Positions 4,396-47,239 of a DNA stretch of 64,000 nucleotides are shown here, one piece after another. Origin of the DNA: Escherichia phage muut; sequence record NC_052657.1; one strand, given 5' to 3'. Under the pieces are notes generated by a model. That model did not search any database. It saw nothing but the letters and a program-made list of their open reading frames with translations, and was not told where the DNA came from. A program made the position numbers and the translations under genes. The number at the start of each line of letters is the position of its first letter. Positions within the stretch are counted from its first letter, which is position 1.

Positions 4396-5265
4396 ATGAA
4401 AGGTATTATCTTAGCAGGTGGTAGTGGAACAAGACTTTACCCAGTTACTAAAGGGGTTAGTAAACAACTATTACCAATTTACGATAAACCTATGATTTAT
4501 TATCCACTCTCTGTCCTAATGCTTTCTGGAATTAGGGAAATACTAATAATTACGACACCAGAAGATCAAATTAATTTTGTAAATCTTCTAGGTGATGGTT
4601 CTTCTTTTGGTATTTCCCTACAGTATGCAATACAGGACAACCCAAAAGGTTTAGCAGAAGCGTTTATTATTGGTGAGAGCTTTATTGGTGAAGATTCTGT
4701 AGCACTTGTTCTAGGTGATAATTTGTTCTTTGGTCAGAGTTTTGGTAGCATTTTAGATTCTGCTAAAGAACATATTGAAAAGAATGGTGGAGCTAATATT
4801 TTTGGGTATCACGTAAATGATCCTGAAAGATTTGGTGTTGTTGAGTTTGATTCTGAAGGTACAGTGGTAAGTATTGAAGAAAAACCAAAAGCACCAAAAA
4901 GCAATTATGCAATTACAGGCTTGTACTTTTACGATAATTCTGTTATACAGAAAGCTAAAAGCGTTAAACCTTCTGCTAGAGGGGAATTAGAGATCACAGA
5001 TATAAATGAGATGTACTGGAAAGAAAAGACTTTACGTGTCTGTAAACTAGGAAGAGGTTTCACTTGGCTGGATACAGGAACACATGAAAGTCTTATGGAA
5101 GCATCTCAATTTGTTCATGCAATAGAAAAGCAACAAGGTATGAAGGTTGCATGCCTGGAAGAGATTGCTTTTAAAAATGAATGGATTACTTTAGACTCTG
5201 TAAAAAGTTCTGGAGAGGTTTTAAGTAAAACAGACTACGGTAAGTATTTACTTAAATTAAAATAA
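4396..5265 (+). CDS. rmlA: glucose-1-phosphate thymidylyltransferase
   Basis: 289 aa; N-terminal [14 protein letters not shown] nucleotidyltransferase signature. Confidence 0.9.
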
Positions 5266-5277
5266 AGGGGGAATTAA

Positions 5278-5832
5278 ATGATTCAAGCAACAAAAATCGA
5301 AGATTTGTTGATCATTCAACCTGACGTTTACGGAGATGAACGTGGTTTTTTCTTAGAAAGTTTTAATCAGGCTTTATATGATCAATACATAGGTAAACAA
5401 AACTTTGTCCAAGATAACCATTCACGTTCTATTCGAGGAGTTCTACGTGGGCTTCATTTTCAAAAGAAAAACCCACAAGGGAAGTTAGTACGTTGTGTTC
5501 GTGGTGAAGTTTATGATGTTGCTGTAGATATTAGGGTTGATAGTCCAACATTTGGAGAATGGGTAGGTGTTCTCTTATCTGAAAAGAATAAAACACAATT
5601 TTGGATTCCTCCTGGTTTCGCTCATGGCTTTGTTGTGATTAGTGACATTGCTGATTTTGAATATAAATGTACAGAATATTACGATCCGACTTCAGAGTGT
5701 AGTCTTGCGTGGAATGATCCAGATATCAATATTGATTGGGGTTTTGATTTAATCTTTAATGATATTAATTTTAAACCTATCTTGTCACAAAAAGATCAGG
5801 AAGCCAAAACACTAAAGGAGATCATATTTTGA
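5278..5832 (+). CDS. rmlC: dTDP-4-dehydrorhamnose 3,5-epimerase
   Basis: 184 aa cupin-type; RGLHFQ and DERGFFLE segments typical of RmlC. Confidence 0.85.
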   Translation: MIQATKIEDLLIIQPDVYGDERGFFLESFNQALYDQYIGKQNFVQDNHSRSIRGVLRGLHFQKKNPQGKLVRCVRGEVYDVAVDIRVDSPTFGEWVGVLLSEKNKTQFWIPPGFAHGFVVISDIADFEYKCTEYYDPTSECSLAWNDPDINIDWGFDLIFNDINFKPILSQKDQEAKTLKEIIF

Positions 5833-6659
5833 CAAAATTTTTAATCTTTGGTTCAAAAGGTCAATTAGGACAATCTTTGGCAAAAGTTGCACCAGAAGAT
5901 GTTATTTTGATTGAAGCAAGTGATATAGACATTACCAACTTTAAAGATGTTATGAATAGTCTTGTACAGCACGTGCCTGATGTTGTTGTGAATTGTGCGG
6001 CTTACACGGCAGTAGATAAAGCTGAAGAAGATGTTAACACCTGTATAAATGTTAATGCATACGGTGCAACAAACATTGCCAAAGCATGTAATGATTTACT
6101 GATACAGTTTGTACATATTTCAACAGACTATGTTTTTGATGGGCATGTTGCTGGCACAGAAGATAGTAAAACAAACCCCTTGAACACCTACGGTTACAGT
6201 AAACAATTAGGTGAAACTTTAGTACAAACAGTTTGTCCTACAGCACTTATTATCAGAACAGCTTCTGTTTATAGTGAATTTGGACATAACTTTTTGAAAA
6301 CTATGTTGGAACGCTACAACGGTGGTCAAAAAGAATTTAATGTAGTATGTGATCATTTATCATGTCCTACTTATGCACCTGATCTTGCAGAAACAATTTT
6401 TAAACTTGTAAAAGATGGTGTAAATAGTAAAATTGTACACTATGCAGGTGCAGATTATATTTCTTGGTATGATTTTGCACGAAAGATATTTCTTGTTATA
6501 GATTTATCTGTTACAGTTAATCCTGTATCTGCTTCAACCTATAATTCCAAAGCAGTCAGACCAGCAACATCTTATTTAAAAACAGATCCTACTTTAAATC
6601 CGCGAAGTGTTGATAGCGGTATTGTAAGAACTTTAACTATACTTTTAAACAAGGAGTGA
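5829..6659 (+). CDS. rmlD: dTDP-4-dehydrorhamnose reductase
   Basis: 276 aa; N-terminal FGSKGQLGQ Rossmann motif; last gene of rml operon order. Confidence 0.8.
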   Translation: MTKFLIFGSKGQLGQSLAKVAPEDVILIEASDIDITNFKDVMNSLVQHVPDVVVNCAAYTAVDKAEEDVNTCINVNAYGATNIAKACNDLLIQFVHISTDYVFDGHVAGTEDSKTNPLNTYGYSKQLGETLVQTVCPTALIIRTASVYSEFGHNFLKTMLERYNGGQKEFNVVCDHLSCPTYAPDLAETIFKLVKDGVNSKIVHYAGADYISWYDFARKIFLVIDLSVTVNPVSASTYNSKAVRPATSYLKTDPTLNPRSVDSGIVRTLTILLNKE

Positions 6660-32369: not shown

Positions 32370-32400
32370 TGAGAATAATTATCATTTGCATTATCATTCA
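32370..32400. repeat. Fur-box-like palindrome
   Basis: GAGAATAATTATCATTTGC, 14/19 to GATAATGATAATCATTATC. Confidence 0.35.
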
Positions 32401-32554
32401 ATGACTTATAAGACTTTTGATTATTTTCTGAGCAAGAAAGGTACTACTCACAACAAAACAGATAAATTCTAAGTAAATCAATGGCTTGGCAAGTCTAAAC
32501 ATCTATATACACCTTGCCAAATGAAATGATCTGGCGTGAAATAGTGCTACCCGT

Positions 32555-32580
32555 GGAAGATAGCTGATAATGATTATCAT
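32555..32580. repeat. Fur-box-like palindrome
   Basis: GATAATGATTATCATTTGC, 16/19 to Fur consensus. Confidence 0.45.
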
Positions 32581-33107
32581 TTGCATATTTTCTATACTAT
32601 AAAACGCACTAAAAATCAAGATAATTCTGATTTATTGCGCTTTTAAGAAAGTAGGCTCAACAAATAGGCTATAACTATGCTCAACAAATAACAATAATAG
32701 TATGAAAAATCATTTATTCAGATATAAATAATTTTGCGCAATAGTAGTAATATTTTTCTTGACAAGAAAGATTTCTTTGTGTTCACATAGCGCCCCCTGG
32801 AAGGTGGCGCATTATGATCATCAATGTCATTATTCACCATGTTTATTATTGCATAGCTTATTATTTAGCTTATATTATAGCCAATGTTCTAAACACTAGC
32901 TAATAATAACGCACCGCAACAATGTAAGGGATACAATATACCATGTATATTGTTGCGCTTGCAATTGTTGCAAGCTACATAAGCACAAATAATAACTATC
33001 GGTGATGGTTATTATGTGGGGTGTGTAGTTGCGTTATTATTAGCCGCCTATGTGTCCGGCATAGGCTGCTAATGATACGCTTGCGAATTATATTTCTTGT
33101 TATAGTT

Positions 33108-33175
33108 ATTGTATGAAATGATTACCACATGAAATGGTTACTGTATGCAATGATTACTGTATGAAATGATTAGTT
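33108..33175. repeat. four tandem ~16-bp direct repeats (iteron-like)
   Basis: GTATGAAATGATTAC / CATGAAATGGTTAC / GTATGCAATGATTAC / GTATGAAATGATTAG. Confidence 0.55.
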
Positions 33176-33189
33176 AGGTAATAAATAGG

Positions 33190-33470
33190 AAGGTAAAGGT
33201 TAGATCATAAATAGATAGGATATGAATTATTTAGTAATGTTACTAACGATTTAATAGTTACTTTGTGCAATAATTCGATAGATTATAGTTATAGTTTTAA
33301 AGGTTAGATAGATTATATTTAGCTTAGTAATGATTTATATTAGTTATTGTTGTTTAATATAAGGTTATCAATGAGATAGTAACAGTAAGTTATAAATAAA
33401 GGTTAGATAATTAGTTTTAATTTAGTTAGATAACTTATTATTTTATAGGTTAGATGGTCATAAGTTAAGA
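33190..33470. repeat. dispersed AAAGGTTAGAT repeats (4-5 copies)
   Basis: Copies near 33196, 33297, 33408, 33434, 33446 in AT-rich context. Confidence 0.45.
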
Positions 33471-33545
33471 ATGATTATCATTATTGCATTATGCAGCTTA
33501 TTGCATAAATAATCAGCTATAAATAAGAATGATTATCATTTAAGA
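33465..33545. repeat. two Fur-box-like palindromes
   Basis: AGAATGATTATCATTATTG and AAATAAGAATGATTATCAT; second is near-identical to 43383-43405. Confidence 0.45.
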
Positions 33546-33733
33546 GGAAAGACAAGAAAAAGGCTGTTTTTGCCAGATAGTTGCATGAAGAAATTAAAAA
33601 TAAGCGGTCTAAAACACGTTGTAAGCGCCTTATGATCTTCATGGTATGGTTGTTCATCTGCTCCTTGATTAGCTCGATACCGCGATCTATTCACTTTTTT
33701 CGGTGAACGTTTTTGATAGGTAAAAGCTATCAT
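33536..33733 (-). CDS. hypothetical basic protein (65 aa), doubtful
   Basis: ORF at edge of non-coding region, poor RBS. Confidence 0.25.
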   Translation of the reverse strand: MIAFTYQKRSPKKVNRSRYRANQGADEQPYHEDHKALTTCFRPLIFNFFMQLSGKNSLFLVFPLK

Positions 33734-41106: not shown

Positions 41107-41472
41107 TTATAAATCTTTTTTACGTTTAACATCGCTTGCATGGCTGTATACAGCGATCCCATTGTCACGGCAAAAACGGGAAAGATACGCGCCGCGTGAA
41201 AACTCTTTACCTTCCAGGTTGATAACCTTGCTAAACTCTTCTAGGGCAACGGTATCAAAATGATCCCCGTATCCATATTGGAACGGCACGTTTACCACTT
41301 CGATCAGTTTACCGCCGATCTCAACGTCAACCATCAAAGAGAAATAAGTATTACCATAAGACTTTTGAAACCAGCGACGGGCGCTAATATGCACCGCTTC
41401 AATGCTGGATAGTTCAATTTTAGCCGTGTTAGCCAGGGTAGCATAAGCGGAAACATTAATATTTTTAGCCAT
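41107..41472 (-). CDS. hypothetical protein (121 aa)
   Basis: AGGA RBS. Confidence 0.5.
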   Translation of the reverse strand: MAKNINVSAYATLANTAKIELSSIEAVHISARRWFQKSYGNTYFSLMVDVEIGGKLIEVVNVPFQYGYGDHFDTVALEEFSKVINLEGKEFSRGAYLSRFCRDNGIAVYSHASDVKRKKDL

Positions 41473-42604: not shown

Positions 42605-42656
42605 CGGGAACTATTCCCGCTTTAAGATAGCTTATCAGGTTTTAGTGCAACGTCAA
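42605..42656 (-). promoter_or_regulatory. promoter plus stem-loop cassette
   Basis: TTGACG-16-TAAGCT then GCGGGAATAGTTCCCGC. Confidence 0.5.
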
Positions 42657-42690
42657 CCGTTTTTTTAATCTTTTTTCATTTCTTTTTTGC

Positions 42691-43035: not shown

Positions 43036-43064
43036 TTGACAAGCCCAGGGATCGGGCTTATACT
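43036..43064 (+). promoter_or_regulatory. sigma70-like promoter
   Basis: TTGACA-17-TATACT. Confidence 0.5.
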
Positions 43065-43070
43065 GTTTTA

Positions 43071-43170
43071 CATACAGAAGAGGAAGCGCCACCCCCACGG
43101 CGTAAAGGCGGGGCTAACATACCAGGGCACTACTGGTTGGAAGGTTGATCGCCGGTAGCTCGTCTAAAAT
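43071..43170 (+). ncRNA. candidate small structured RNA
   Basis: GC-rich hairpin-rich ~100 nt after the promoter, with no ORF and no RBS. Confidence 0.25.
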
Positions 43171-43314
43171 AAATTTGTAAAGAAATGTAAAGATAAAAAT
43201 AATCGCTTGCTTTTGTTGTTGGTTATGCTATTCTTATTGTATGGCGAGGGGATACGGGAGCGCGAGACAAACACCACCCCTGCGCGTTATTCTCTAAATG
43301 AGAAAATTCTTATT

Positions 43315-43405
43315 TGGTAATGATTCTCATTCTCTTACTGAGAATGATTATCACTTACATAATTAAATGATAATGATTCTCATTTACAAATGAGAATGAT
43401 TATCA
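43315..43405. repeat. cluster of four Fur-box-like palindromes
   Basis: TAATGATTCTCATT, GAGAATGATTATCAC, GATAATGATTCTCAT, GAGAATGATTATCAT. Confidence 0.45.
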
Positions 43406-43430
43406 TCCGCACACCCATAAAAACACGAAA

Positions 43431-43631
43431 TTGAACTTTTCATTTTTGATTTTTCTACGGAAAAAGGCAAAAAAACTTTAAATAAACTGGGGAATTTTTA
43501 AAAAATTGAAGTTTTCATTTTCAAAATCTGGACAGAAATACATACAAAAACTTTAAATAATTTTGACCAAACTTGAACTTTTCATTTTCAAAATTTGTAG
43601 CCAAAAATCTGTAAAAACTTTAAATAATTTT
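43431..43631. repeat. three tandem ~62-67 bp direct repeats
   Basis: Each unit: TTGAA(C/G)TTTTCATTTT(C/T)(A/G)A(A/T)(A/T)T ... AAAAACTTTAAATAA. Confidence 0.55.
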
Positions 43632-43845
43632 ATCCTTTTTATAAAAATGATTTTACTGTTCTGTTATAAATAGTAGTTAAGAGATAATGTGTCTTTTAAA
43701 AGCCAGATAGCATAGTCCAACAAACAAATTAAATAATTTATTAACAGAGTACAGAATAATATTTACTCTGGATATATTATTCAGAGGGTGGATTTCCGTA
43801 CATGAAACCCACACCCCTTTTATAAAAATAAAAATTTTCAAAATA

Positions 43846-44397
43846 TCAGGAAATATCAGATTGTGTTTTTAGATAAACAGCAAGGTCTGTATGCCATTTT
43901 CCTAAAAGATTTTGTCCTTTCCAACAATCCTTGTTTTCAACATTACGATCCCACATCCCCATTTTGATACCATAAATAGAATCATAAGGGCTTGCCTCTA
44001 CGAACTCCTTATCTGCGTAAGCAATAAGTTTATTTTTGAGATCTTCATTTTGTGTGTATTTAAGATACAAACCACGTTCGACAATCTTCTCCCGTAAAGA
44101 AGTCCAGGTATCTTCATCATAATCCTTAACTAATCTACCTAGTCGCTTATAATATGCTTGTTCTTTTTCTCCTGTATATCTTAGATCTCCGGTTAAAATA
44201 GAAGATGCAATATTGTAATCATAAAACAAACATGCTTTTCTCCACATCATATATTGTTCCACACAAGTAAATTCAACATAACTTGTAATAGAATTATTAT
44301 ACTTGGGAGCTAAAGGTTCAATAAAAGATGATAGATACCAGTTGCTAAATTCATCTTTTGCCGAAAAGAAGAACACATACTTATCAGTAATCCGCAT
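43846..44397 (-). CDS. NADAR (YbiA-like) domain protein
   Basis: FSNW, EQYMMWRKACLF, KYTQNEDLKNKL...EASPYDSIYGIKMG, GQNLLGK segments align with the YbiA/NADAR fold. Confidence 0.7.
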   Translation of the reverse strand: MRITDKYVFFFSAKDEFSNWYLSSFIEPLAPKYNNSITSYVEFTCVEQYMMWRKACLFYDYNIASSILTGDLRYTGEKEQAYYKRLGRLVKDYDEDTWTSLREKIVERGLYLKYTQNEDLKNKLIAYADKEFVEASPYDSIYGIKMGMWDRNVENKDCWKGQNLLGKWHTDLAVYLKTQSDIS

Positions 44398-45588
44398 TTA
44401 CACCTCCTTACTGTATACTAATTTGCCACCATATTGTGTAATAATTTTTTGAAGATTTTCCAAATCAGAAACACTTACTGTTTCTGTATAACCATCTTTC
44501 AACTCTCTTTTCGTTAAAATACCAGTTTTTAATTTTTTCTTTATAGCTCTTTCAGCAGCCTTACATTGTTTCACTGTGCTAAAATCATATAAACAAATAC
44601 GCTCCATAAAAAACAGATTACGGCTATTTTGAATGTTTAATCGCCTATCACTATCTTTAGCTATACCAAACTTAAGAGCAACTATAATATTATCATCCTT
44701 AACAATATTAATATATAACTGCTGCTGACTATGACCAGCACACATAGGACAACCTCGACAGCGGCTTAATAAATTATGAGCACTCCCTATCTGCTCACCA
44801 TGCACAAGACAAAGATATTTAAACTTACCTATAGAAGAGGGTTTGGTAATCCAATCTACCCAGACATACCCTTTCCCTTCTACTTCCTTTTTTACCCTAT
44901 AGGTGATCTGGTCTTCTGTATACTGATAGTTCCCACAACGACACGGAATGTACCCTCGTTTAAGGTTATTTCCTTCAGAGTAAAATTTACCATCACAAAC
45001 ACCTGCTTGAACATATTCATCATGAGAGCAAACAGGACATTCAACCATCCAGATACTATGCCTGCGTCCTTTACTCCGTGTTCCTGTGTTAGTGAAGATA
45101 GTGCCTTCCTTAAATTTCCCTGTAGAAAAGAAATCTGCAATATGTTGATCGTCGGGCATTGTTAGTGCCTTCCTTGTATTCTCCCCCCTACATTGTGGAC
45201 AACCTCGACCGCCTTTAAATTGATGAATTGCTGTACTTTGCCATCTATTCCCACAATGGCACAACAAATCAAGTTTTGTTTTATTCCCTTTCCATTCTCC
45301 AACGTACCCTAACACCTGATACCCCTTCTTCTGTGCTATCTCTTCCAAGATCGGCAATTCTGTTTCCCATGTTAACGGCTTCTTACCAGAACAGATAGGA
45401 CAACTGTTGCCGCGCTTGAAATTACTAATACTACAAGTCTTCCATTCATGTTCCTGCCTACAGCGTAGAATCATTTTCGTATCACAACCTATAAACGGTT
45501 CAACATATCCTAGGATCTCAATCCCTTTATTATTCGCAATAGGTTGACACTCTTCTTTATATTGTTCCCATGATTTTGGTGCTGCCAT
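44398..45588 (-). CDS. zinc-ribbon repeat protein with C-terminal T5orf172/GIY-YIG-like domain
   Basis: Repeated C..C...CP.C modules; C-terminal KFGIAKDSDRR...DGYTE segment similar to 49258..50256. Confidence 0.4.
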   Translation of the reverse strand: MAAPKSWEQYKEECQPIANNKGIEILGYVEPFIGCDTKMILRCRQEHEWKTCSISNFKRGNSCPICSGKKPLTWETELPILEEIAQKKGYQVLGYVGEWKGNKTKLDLLCHCGNRWQSTAIHQFKGGRGCPQCRGENTRKALTMPDDQHIADFFSTGKFKEGTIFTNTGTRSKGRRHSIWMVECPVCSHDEYVQAGVCDGKFYSEGNNLKRGYIPCRCGNYQYTEDQITYRVKKEVEGKGYVWVDWITKPSSIGKFKYLCLVHGEQIGSAHNLLSRCRGCPMCAGHSQQQLYINIVKDDNIIVALKFGIAKDSDRRLNIQNSRNLFFMERICLYDFSTVKQCKAAERAIKKKLKTGILTKRELKDGYTETVSVSDLENLQKIITQYGGKLVYSKEV

Positions 45589-45626
45589 CTACTACTCCTC
45601 TTATTAAATCTGGCATTAATGCAAGA

Positions 45627-45652
45627 AAACCCGCCGAAGCGGGTTTTTATTT
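45627..45652. terminator. rho-independent terminator (bidirectional)
   Basis: AAACCCGC-CGAA-GCGGGTTT flanked by T-runs. Confidence 0.55.
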
Positions 45653-45662
45653 GCTGGCTTAC

Positions 45663-46790
45663 TTAAAACACACTTGCCAAAGTTGCACCATTGGTGATAG
45701 TTGGTTCCAGAACAATACGGAAAGAATCTTCTGGATCATCACTAAACACAACGATTTTACCGCCTGTAATAAGATCTGCTTTCATTTTTGTCGCATTCAA
45801 TGGAATTCGAGCATCGCCTTCATCATCAAAAACCACGTAAGAGCTATTAGCAAGGGCTTCTTTAGAATCTGCATCACTTGGAGATGACAAGTACACGTCC
45901 AGTGTGCACGAACCACCTAAAAAGATTGCAGGTGTGAAGTTATGCCAACTAGATACCCAGCTAACTTTCTGAAGTTTCCCATTAATAACAACACTGCTGA
46001 TATCCCATTTATTACCACCACCTAAAGAAACACCCATCATAGAGATGCATTCTTTAAAGGATAAATCAGGGTAGAAATTAAGTTCTTCTACTATACCTTG
46101 GATCACATCAAAGGACAACTCTAAACTTACATCCCAAAGTCTTTGGAAATTATCAAAGTGTGCTTTGTTATCCAGGTTTTTATCTAAATAGTCCATCATA
46201 GTTTCTAGTGAGATTTTATCATAATTAAAATTATAAAACACACGACTAGGACGATTTAAAAAGAATTCAGAGATAAAGCCACTGTTTTTAGTCAGAATAA
46301 ACAGTTTATTACCACTGCCAGTACCATCTAACAAAGTGAGAAGTGCTTCTTGATCTTGTTTCTTCTCATATACTTTATCAAATTCATCAAAAATAATCAC
46401 TGCTTTGTCTGTGATCTTGCTAATAAGTTCAATGAAATTAGCATCACTGTAGGCTTGAGTAACCATAATAGTTGGAATACCTTCTTCTACAAGGTCACGA
46501 CTAATGAGTTTGGCTAACATAGTTTTACCACTGCCCTTAGTGCCTGTCAGGAGCAAACCTGTATTTTTACCTTGTGCACTCCGGCGATGGAATGTACGAA
46601 TAACGTGATTTGCTCGTTTTTCTGTTTCACCATACAGAACATCCGGTACACCTGTTAGATTACCACGGCTTAAAAAGTAATTGCCAAGGGGATCACGACT
46701 AACAGTATAGAATCCAGGTGGAAGATAGTTAGATTCCACGCCCATATCTTTATTTACACTTACAATATCACCATAAATCGTGTATTTCAT
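45663..46790 (-). CDS. P-loop ATPase, paralog 1
   Basis: Walker A GTKGSGKT, Walker B IIFDEFDK; ~50% identical to 62498..63658. Confidence 0.6.
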   Translation of the reverse strand: MKYTIYGDIVSVNKDMGVESNYLPPGFYTVSRDPLGNYFLSRGNLTGVPDVLYGETEKRANHVIRTFHRRSAQGKNTGLLLTGTKGSGKTMLAKLISRDLVEEGIPTIMVTQAYSDANFIELISKITDKAVIIFDEFDKVYEKKQDQEALLTLLDGTGSGNKLFILTKNSGFISEFFLNRPSRVFYNFNYDKISLETMMDYLDKNLDNKAHFDNFQRLWDVSLELSFDVIQGIVEELNFYPDLSFKECISMMGVSLGGGNKWDISSVVINGKLQKVSWVSSWHNFTPAIFLGGSCTLDVYLSSPSDADSKEALANSSYVVFDDEGDARIPLNATKMKADLITGGKIVVFSDDPEDSFRIVLEPTITNGATLASVF

Positions 46791-46801
46791 TTTAACCCCT
46801 T

Positions 46802-47239
46802 TTATTTTTGTTGAGATGAACGAATTAAATCAGCAGCAAATTCAATCAGATACACTTTTGGTGCAATAATGATTTTTAGCCAATCAAAATTCGAAAAGAA
46901 AATAACAAATCCTAAAAAGAAAAAGAAAGCACAGACAACAAGACCAACAATAGGTAAAGCAGATACTTCACCATAGCGATCTCGTGACCACAGGCATTCT
47001 TTATCTTTAATTGCTTTTACGAGGTTCCGTACAGCAATAAAAGTAATAAACATAAAGCAAATACTAAAAAGTTGCCATAAACCTGCGGATACTGCTTTCC
47101 ACACTAATAATTGATGAATTACTTCTGGAATTTGTTGTTTTCCAAACTCTACAACATCACTCATTGTTTGAATAGTGACGTTAACCATGTTCAGAAGTAC
47201 ATCAGTTGCTTTATCTGCGATTGCGTTTGTTTTACTCAT
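46802..47239 (-). CDS. membrane protein (145 aa)
   Basis: GAGGA RBS; several hydrophobic segments. Confidence 0.5.
   Translation of the reverse strand: MSKTNAIADKATDVLLNMVNVTIQTMSDVVEFGKQQIPEVIHQLLVWKAVSAGLWQLFSICFMFITFIAVRNLVKAIKDKECLWSRDRYGEVSALPIVGLVVCAFFFFLGFVIFFSNFDWLKIIIAPKVYLIEFAADLIRSSQQK

Follow-up and report, generated by a model that had tools for sequence, protein, structure and literature searches.

An orphan NADAR protein of Escherichia phage muut is very likely an AdfN-type enzyme that disarms DarTG1

The DNA analysed here is a stretch of 64,000 nucleotides from Escherichia phage muut (sequence record NC_052657.1), referred to below as the window. A gene located at 43846-44397 on the minus strand encodes a stand-alone NADAR protein of 183 amino acids, which is the orthologue of AdfN^Bas60 (bas60_0111, QXV83846.1). 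Our analysis indicates that this adfN-like gene very likely specifies an orphan, antitoxin-like NADAR ADP-ribosylglycohydrolase of the AdfN^Bas60 type that disarms DarTG1. Since an anti-DarT1 role of this orthologue group was published in 2024-2025, the assignment is a confirmation and not a new lead. The original prediction, made from the DNA letters, had put a 183-residue protein at these positions without giving the strand. The open reading frame (ORF) was recovered exactly, with its ATG at 44397-44395 on the minus strand and its stop codon, at 43846-43848, counted within the ORF.

The window protein is an unambiguous member of the NADAR superfamily. A search against Pfam returned NADAR (PF08719) with an E-value of 5.3e-36 and 124.8 bits as compared to a gathering cut-off of 35.1, and the match spans residues 13-168 of the protein and positions 9-154 of the 163 in the profile. 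This result bears out the YbiA/NADAR signature segments that had been read from the sequence. The protein also matches PHROG 1017, a family listed as 'unknown function', with an E-value of 1.6e-49. By sequence, the closest chain in the PDB is 8BAU, a 'NADAR domain-containing protein' (E = 5e-12), and the match to E. coli YbiA (2B3W) is marginal (E = 0.06). With a profile built from 114 homologues, the E-values were 1.4e-37 for 8BAU and 2.5e-18 for YbiA, and no DarG1-type, DarT1-associated NADAR chain in the PDB matched this profile at E<=0.01. A comparison of a predicted structure with those of known NADAR proteins had been suggested as a check. An AlphaFold2 model based on the 114-homologue alignment has a mean predicted local distance difference test (pLDDT) score of 96.6 and a predicted template modelling (pTM) score of 0.90. 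A Foldseek search of the PDB with this model revealed exactly two significant matches, the NADAR of 8BAU with its ADP-ribose (ADPr; E = 9.8e-10, template modelling (TM) score 0.77) and YbiA 2B3W (E = 2.2e-6, TM 0.70), while all remaining matches had E>1. Membership of the DS32_2 NADAR anti-phage defence proteins (NF053876) was ruled out, with 24.5 bits against a cut-off of 240.

The structure 8BAU is that of the Phytophthora nicotianae NADAR crystallised with ADPr, in which the ligand is contacted by E43, K50, R79, W89, R93, E125, D130, and W133, and guanine de-ADP-ribosylation needs equivalents of E43, K50, and E125 (Schuller et al., Mol Cell 2023, PMC11543638). Active-site residues were mapped by HMMER alignment to 8BAU, corrected for a two-residue SEQRES offset. 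The predicted active site of the window protein, aligned to the 8BAU contacts, consists of E47, K54, R88, W98, R102, E134, D139, and Y142. Five of these residues (E47, K54, W98, E134, and D139) are present in 114 of the 114 homologues and R88 is present in 109. At position 142, the equivalent of 8BAU W133, Trp occurs in 91 homologues and Tyr in 23, and the window protein has Tyr. Glu (E134) occupies the diagnostic catalytic position in the window protein and in every one of the 114 homologues. This position is Glu in the stand-alone NADAR and YbiA families, Asp in the DarT1-associated antitoxins, and His in the T4-type phage NADARs (PMC11543638). The NADAR domain begins at approximately residue 8-13 of 183, and the protein has no N-terminal extension.

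The 4.4 kb around the NADAR gene are 95-97% identical to many Justusliebigvirus genomes (Stephanstirmvirinae), including those of phages arall, PD06, Eryne, and Paula and of the BASEL phages PaulScherrer and JohannJBalmer. PaulScherrer is Bas60 (bas60_ locus tags) and JohannJBalmer is Bas62 (bas62_ tags). The source phage belongs to Justusliebigvirus, a group of virulent E. coli myoviruses with genomes of ~145-150 kb (about 146 kb for the window phage), and the lytic-phage context that had been assumed at the outset is borne out by the identity to these virulent genomes. The window protein and bas60_0111 are both 183 residues long and are identical at 179 of 183 positions (98%), and the Bas62 protein is 97% identical. 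The gene bas60_0111, annotated as a 'putative YbiA-like N-glycosidase', has the same length and syntenic position as the window gene. Going from the window to Bas60, the four substitutions are Y40S, N62S, E107K, and N152D, all of which fall in freely varying columns and none at the active site. The gene is intact in the six orthologues compared, with ratios of nonsynonymous to synonymous substitution rates (dN/dS) of 0.04-0.16, and is under purifying selection. Its GC content is 33.2%, as compared to 37.1% for the whole window.

The functional evidence comes from Johannesman, Carlson, and LeRoux, who reported a distinct NADAR in Bas60, Bas61, and Bas62 and gave it the name AdfN^Bas60 (bioRxiv 2024, PMC11257639; Nat Commun 2025;16:1598, PMC11825919). 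AdfN^Bas60 neutralises DarT1 toxicity in uninfected E. coli, and, when supplied in trans, it brings RB69, T5, and Bas25 back to full titre on DarTG1 cells (PMC11825919). It gives T5 no help against the thymine-specific DarTG2 (PMC11825919). In the published phylogeny, AdfN^Bas60 groups with non-YbiA bacterial NADARs (PMC11825919).

Based on these findings, the following mechanism is proposed. Host DarT1 puts ADPr on the N2 of guanine in phage DNA, and replication is blocked. The phage NADAR would bind the ADPr via K54, R88, W98, and R102, and the bond between the ribose and guanine N2 would be cleaved using E47 and E134 together with D139. Guanine would be restored in this way and phage replication could proceed. 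The cleavage step is suggested by the family chemistry and the intact active site, and by analogy the chemistry is expected to be enzymatic de-ADP-ribosylation as in AdfN^T4 and DarG1. Judged by its sequence, the window allele should be as active as AdfN^Bas60, and we infer that anti-DarT1 activity is the role of the gene for its own phage during infection. By analogy with AdfN^Bas60, the target would be specifically DarT1, which acts on guanine, and not DarT2, which acts on thymine. The original prediction had proposed counter-defence against DNA ADP-ribosylating toxins of the DarT type. This holds for DarT1, as the 98%-identical AdfN^Bas60 neutralises it and rescues three phages, but it does not extend to DarT2, as DarTG2 is unaffected.

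Several points weigh against this assignment. The published experiments concern AdfN^Bas60 and none of them the exact window allele. In the main text, AdfN^Bas60 is studied by ectopic expression only, and we found there no Bas60 knockout, in-vitro assay, or catalytic mutant; experiments of these three kinds are reported for AdfN^T4 (PMC11825919). The main text prints no accession for the tested protein. We infer that it is bas60_0111 because this is the NADAR/YbiA-like gene found annotated in the Bas60 region examined and because tblastn places about one homologue in each phage record (716 places in 715 records). In vitro, ADPr on guanine (G-ADPr) is removed by every NADAR subtype tested, yet YbiA and T4 gp30.3 give no DarT1 protection in cells (PMC11125620), so the fold alone is insufficient to assume in-cell activity. 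The window protein also scores above the cut-off of NCBIfam TIGR02464, 'riboflavin biosynthesis intermediates N-glycosidase' (109.9 bits vs 73.7), and a de-ADP-ribosylase and an N-glycosidase are thus inseparable by sequence alone. This model is a domain-level equivalog (equivalog_domain) that evidently takes in non-YbiA NADARs too. Finally, a promoter for the NADAR gene was not identified and the gene lies behind a strong terminator.

The best-surviving alternative extends the DarT1 assignment rather than opposing it. The protein could be a broader eraser that takes ADPr off both guanine and cytidine in DNA and RNA, with DarT1 as one target and perhaps not the main one. We consider this possible, though appreciably less probable than an activity directed at DarT1. 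Such an enzyme would guard against other ADP-ribosylating toxins, for example pierisin/ScARP-like or YarT-like toxins or defence ADP-ribosyltransferases (ARTs) that have yet to be discovered. The Glu-type catalytic position (E134) is in keeping with this idea. Glu-type NADARs from the NADAR family and the YbiA family removed G-ADPr as well as ADPr on cytidine (C-ADPr) from DNA and RNA, whereas the Asp-type DarG1 and the His-type T4 NADAR removed G-ADPr only, and the E167D substitution abolished the activity of SCO5665 (Toxins 2026, PMC12945103). The window protein is nearer to the stand-alone NADAR family than to YbiA in the profile comparison given above, in which no DarG1-type chain was matched. 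As AdfN^Bas60 is active both on E. coli DNA that is unmodified and on three unrelated phages (PMC11825919), its context specificity appears to be low, and the authors of that study note that such an enzyme acts whichever toxin placed the mark. However, a cytidine- or RNA-directed ADP-ribosylating defence is not known in the E. coli hosts of the window phage, and removal of C-ADPr by this phage NADAR clade is a prediction made by analogy. In addition, position 142 has changed from Trp to Tyr, as in 23 of the 114 homologues.

A second alternative is that the protein is a YbiA-like housekeeping N-glycosidase that acts on riboflavin-pathway intermediates (5-amino-6-ribosylamino-uracil derivatives) as the product of an auxiliary metabolic gene and does not act on DNA. 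The TIGR02464 score and the YbiA-type Glu (E134) would fit such an activity, as would the public names, since orthologues are recorded as 'putative YbiA-like N-glycosidase' and more distant homologues as 'GTP cyclohydrolase II'. However, DarT1 is neutralised in cells by AdfN^Bas60, a nearly identical protein, but not by E. coli YbiA (PMC11825919, PMC11125620), the 114-homologue profile is far nearer to 8BAU than to YbiA, and the published tree puts AdfN^Bas60 with the non-YbiA NADARs (PMC11825919). Riboflavin genes are absent from the 45 kb of annotated sequence that surround the orthologue in Eryne. The 'GTP cyclohydrolase' labels most likely stem from a ribA/ribD fusion context, as several homologues carry the JGI name 'ribA/ribD-fused uncharacterized protein', and automatic pipelines would assign a YbiA-type name because the TIGR02464 cut-off is passed. 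Overall, we regard a metabolic N-glycosidase as highly improbable.

It is just as improbable that the protein processes free ADPr or NAD-derived small molecules against NAD+-depleting or ADPr-signalling immunity without any DNA repair: homologues of ~42% identity do lie near NMNAT-like, Apyc1, NAMPT/NAPRTase, and phosphoribosyltransferase genes in jumbo-phage-like contigs, and the superfamily is named for its association with NAD and ADPr genes (PMC11125620), but no NAD-metabolism family was found among the immediate neighbours scanned or in the annotation of 45 kb surrounding the orthologue of Eryne, and the experiments on the orthologue point to guanine-ADPr in DNA and to DarT1 (PMC11825919).

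Comparison with known systems places the AdfN-type protein of the window most closely with AdfN^Bas60. The two share the genus Justusliebigvirus, the gene order (ATPase, endonuclease-like gene, NADAR, and non-coding DNA), and all mapped active-site residues. The Bas60 genome differs in that its endonuclease-like gene encodes 467 residues, as compared to 396 in the window, and in that it carries ~1.05 kb and ~0.27 kb of small early genes that are missing in the window. Like the window protein, AdfN^T4 (T4 gp30.3) is an orphan NADAR of a phage; it counters DarTG1 through removal of ADPr from guanine, and it likewise consists of a minimal core domain without an N-terminal extension. AdfN^T4 belongs to another NADAR clade, however, and BLASTP and PSI-BLAST searches from it do not reach the Bas60 protein (PMC11825919). 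It has His at the catalytic position, in place of the Glu (E134) of the window protein. The activity of AdfN^T4 is confined to a Tevenvirinae context, and, unlike AdfN^Bas60, AdfN^T4 cannot neutralise DarT1 in uninfected cells (PMC11825919). With Glu in all 114 homologues and a different clade, the window protein is not a member of the T4-type (gp30.3) group.

DarG1, the DarT1-associated antitoxin of, for example, E. coli C7 and G. lovleyi, has the same fold, carries out guanine-N2 de-ADP-ribosylation, and neutralises DarT1 in cells, as AdfN^Bas60 does. DarG1 adjoins DarT1 and has an N-terminal extension, Asp (D171) at the catalytic site, and a conserved K115 (PMC11543638), whereas the window protein is an orphan of the Glu type with no extension. 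Membership among the DarG1-type antitoxins was dropped as the gene has no DarT neighbour, the domain starts at approximately residue 8-13, the catalytic residue is Glu and not Asp, and no DarG1-type chain in the PDB was matched by the profile at E<=0.01. The stand-alone NADAR family, which includes the P. nicotianae protein of 8BAU, S. coelicolor SCO5665, and the E. coli sigma70-linked NADAR, shares the Glu-type site and the single domain, and the closest among solved structures is 8BAU (27% identity). The members of this family are cellular proteins whose physiological roles are other or undefined, and they mostly have Trp at the position of window Y142. E. coli YbiA is alike in superfamily, catalytic Glu, and fold (TM 0.70), and the TIGR02464 cut-off is passed. 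YbiA is more distant than 8BAU, and it affords no DarT1 protection in vivo although it removes G-ADPr in vitro (PMC11125620). The YbiA gene lies in the LexA-controlled dinG-ybiB operon (PMC11125620), and there is no such context at the window gene. Assignment to YbiA proper was set aside on the closest relatives and on the riboflavin and LexA-operon context.

The family is widespread among phages. The tblastn search (E<=1e-5) that gave the 716 places in 715 phage records yielded, by the first word of the organism name, 233 records for Staphylococcus, 115 for Escherichia, 54 for Listeria, 47 for Enterococcus, 44 for Bacillus, and 36 for Klebsiella as the largest groups. The sister genus Phapecoctavirus has a NADAR of 57% identity and retains the order of ATPase, endonuclease, NADAR, and long non-coding gap, with two extra small genes intervening. 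Public annotation of the gene family is inconsistent and partly wrong. The labels of homologues range over 'hypothetical protein', 'NADAR family protein', and 'N-glycosidase YbiA-like', and phage Eryne (PQ529420; record L006, 22368-22919) names the orthologue 'DNA methyltransferase'. Homologues in several Staphylococcus and jumbo phages are labelled 'GTP cyclohydrolase (II)', and the relevant records include Erwinia and Pectobacterium phages.

The homologues of ~42% identity occur on metagenomic contigs of 354-455 kb that resemble jumbo phages. The loci concerned are 5026-6477 of record L003 and the 354-kb contig that carries homologue P0053. One of the homologues is directly downstream of a CTP_transf_like gene of the NMNAT-like kind, with the Anti-Pycsar gene Apyc1 and GIY-YIG endonucleases close by. 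On the contig of the other, the NADAR gene is near NAMPT/NAPRTase, phosphoribosyltransferase, and Thg1 genes. This suggests that these contigs carry anti-defence or NAD-metabolism islands. A bacterial chromosomal origin for these homologues was considered and dropped, as the contigs look like those of jumbo phages, carrying homing endonucleases of the GIY-YIG type, Apyc1, and NAD-salvage genes, and are uninformative on a bacterial origin.

On the minus strand, the NADAR gene ends a string of genes, which encode a membrane protein (46802-47239), an AAA ATPase of 375 residues (45663-46790), an endonuclease-like protein of 396 residues (44398-45588), and the NADAR. Its flanks are the endonuclease-like gene upstream and non-coding DNA downstream. 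No ART or DarT family was found by Pfam or PHROG among the eight neighbouring ORFs scanned, and the gene is an orphan with no cognate DarT adjoining. The ATPase matches Pfam P-loop families of the AAA/STAND type within residues 56-170. Relatives name this gene 'FtsH-like protease' or 'ATPase or Zn metalloprotease', but no peptidase family was matched in the Pfam search and the protease label looks unsupported. The endonuclease-like protein has three CapR-type zinc-ribbon repeats (Pfam CapR, 2.5e-36 in three stretches), a weak match to T5orf172 (0.0031), and a strong one to PHROG 681, endonuclease (2e-82). Its length varies from 396 residues in the window to 467 in Bas60 and 390 in Bas62, and its gene contains an internal segment that is unalignable (window 45404-45501 vs 5478-5782 of record L001). 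Because its position is kept in Phapecoctavirus, the gene is not a sporadic homing-endonuclease insertion.

The endonuclease-like and NADAR genes appear to be co-transcribed and are possibly translationally coupled. The stop codon TAA of the upstream gene (44400-44398) directly abuts the NADAR ATG, and the 50 nucleotides preceding the start end in ...ACAGTAAGGAGGTGTAA|ATG. A strong Shine-Dalgarno sequence, AAGGAGGTG (core AAGGAGG), was read directly at 44401-44409 on the minus strand, within the final codons of the gene upstream. Between the ATPase gene and the endonuclease-NADAR pair lies an intrinsic terminator, AAAAACCCGC-TTCG-GCGGGTTTTCTT, at 45623-45648 on the minus strand (folding energy -17.8 kcal/mol, z=-5.05), and the equivalent site in phage Paula is annotated as a terminator. 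As this terminator is only ~35 nucleotides from the endonuclease ATG, transcription of the pair probably reads through it or begins at a promoter that escaped recognition. No promoter was assigned because sigma70-like matches were no commoner than chance (17 found vs 17.0 expected; 4 vs 4.3). Beyond the NADAR gene, 28 nucleotides past its stop codon, a stable hairpin in the NADAR sense (minus strand) is located at 43786-43817, with a folding energy of -20.9 kcal/mol and z=-3.7, and none of 200 shuffled sequences was as stable. The hairpin is kept in Bas60, Bas62, and Eryne and is a probable transcript 3' end or terminator, though it has no classical U-tract. A terminator on the plus strand that converges on the NADAR gene was rejected, as the plus strand folds at only -10.7 kcal/mol (z=-1.1).

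Downstream of the NADAR gene, ~700 bp without a convincing gene (43150-43845) are 97% conserved among Justusliebigviruses. Within this stretch are three tandem units of 63-67 bp at 43427-43631 (TTGAACTTTTCATTTTCAAAAT...AAAAACTTTAAATAA), which phage inny annotates merely as 'repeat_region'. The stretch could serve as an origin or iteron region, or else as a promoter array. At 43036-43064 there is a near-consensus sigma70 promoter, TTGACA-17-TATACT, which overlaps a hairpin. A small RNA in the GC-rich segment downstream of this promoter (43066-43300) was considered and dropped, as the fold has z=+1.0 against shuffles and neither an Rfam family nor a tRNA was found. A second long, repeat-rich stretch, at 32370-33560, contains no ORF of more than 65 residues, several Fur-box-like motifs, and short tandem repeats, namely tgaaatgattac in four copies and repeats of aggttagat.

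The palindromic motif TGAGAATGATTATCA, which is closely like the E. coli Fur box, occurs in clusters at 43315-43405. The four boxes ~440 bp downstream of the NADAR stop codon are conserved in Bas60 and Bas62, and Phapecoctavirus ECO340P1 has the motif again in its corresponding non-coding gap. Further Fur-box-like sites are at 32370, 32565, 33466, 33524, 37228, and 56403 and at 4515-4587 of record L009. For the Fur consensus GATAATGATWATCATTATC with <=3 mismatches, we found 5 matches vs 0.10 expected, and for the phage variant of the motif with <=2 mismatches, 11 matches vs 0.33 expected. The motif could be an operator of host Fur, a Fur decoy, or an operator of a phage repressor. A literature search on Fur boxes in virulent phages returned nothing relevant, with one match concerning sitABCD in temperate lambdoid phages.

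The window also lacks DNA that its relatives carry. Compared to Bas60, 1053 bp with three small early genes (bas60_0114 to 0116) are missing at 42649-42664, with a 16-bp overlap at the junction, and Bas62, Eryne, Paula, and inny also annotate small genes at this position. A further ~270 bp, including bas60_0120, are missing at ~41466-41472. All top nucleotide matches with full coverage extend over ~0.8-1.05 kb more than the window does.

The gene family, the mechanism, and the orthologue group of AdfN^Bas60 are all published, and the discovery value of the NADAR assignment is therefore small; the clusters of Fur-box-like operators and the deletions relative to Bas60 are more novel. The practical value of the finding lies in annotation, as the orthologues and homologues could be renamed anti-DarT1 ADP-ribosylglycohydrolase (AdfN). 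By analogy with other Glu-type NADARs, the selective value of the gene in large myoviruses might tentatively be seen as protection against a wider set of defences that ADP-ribosylate nucleic acids, some of them undiscovered, among which DarT1 would be the first known.

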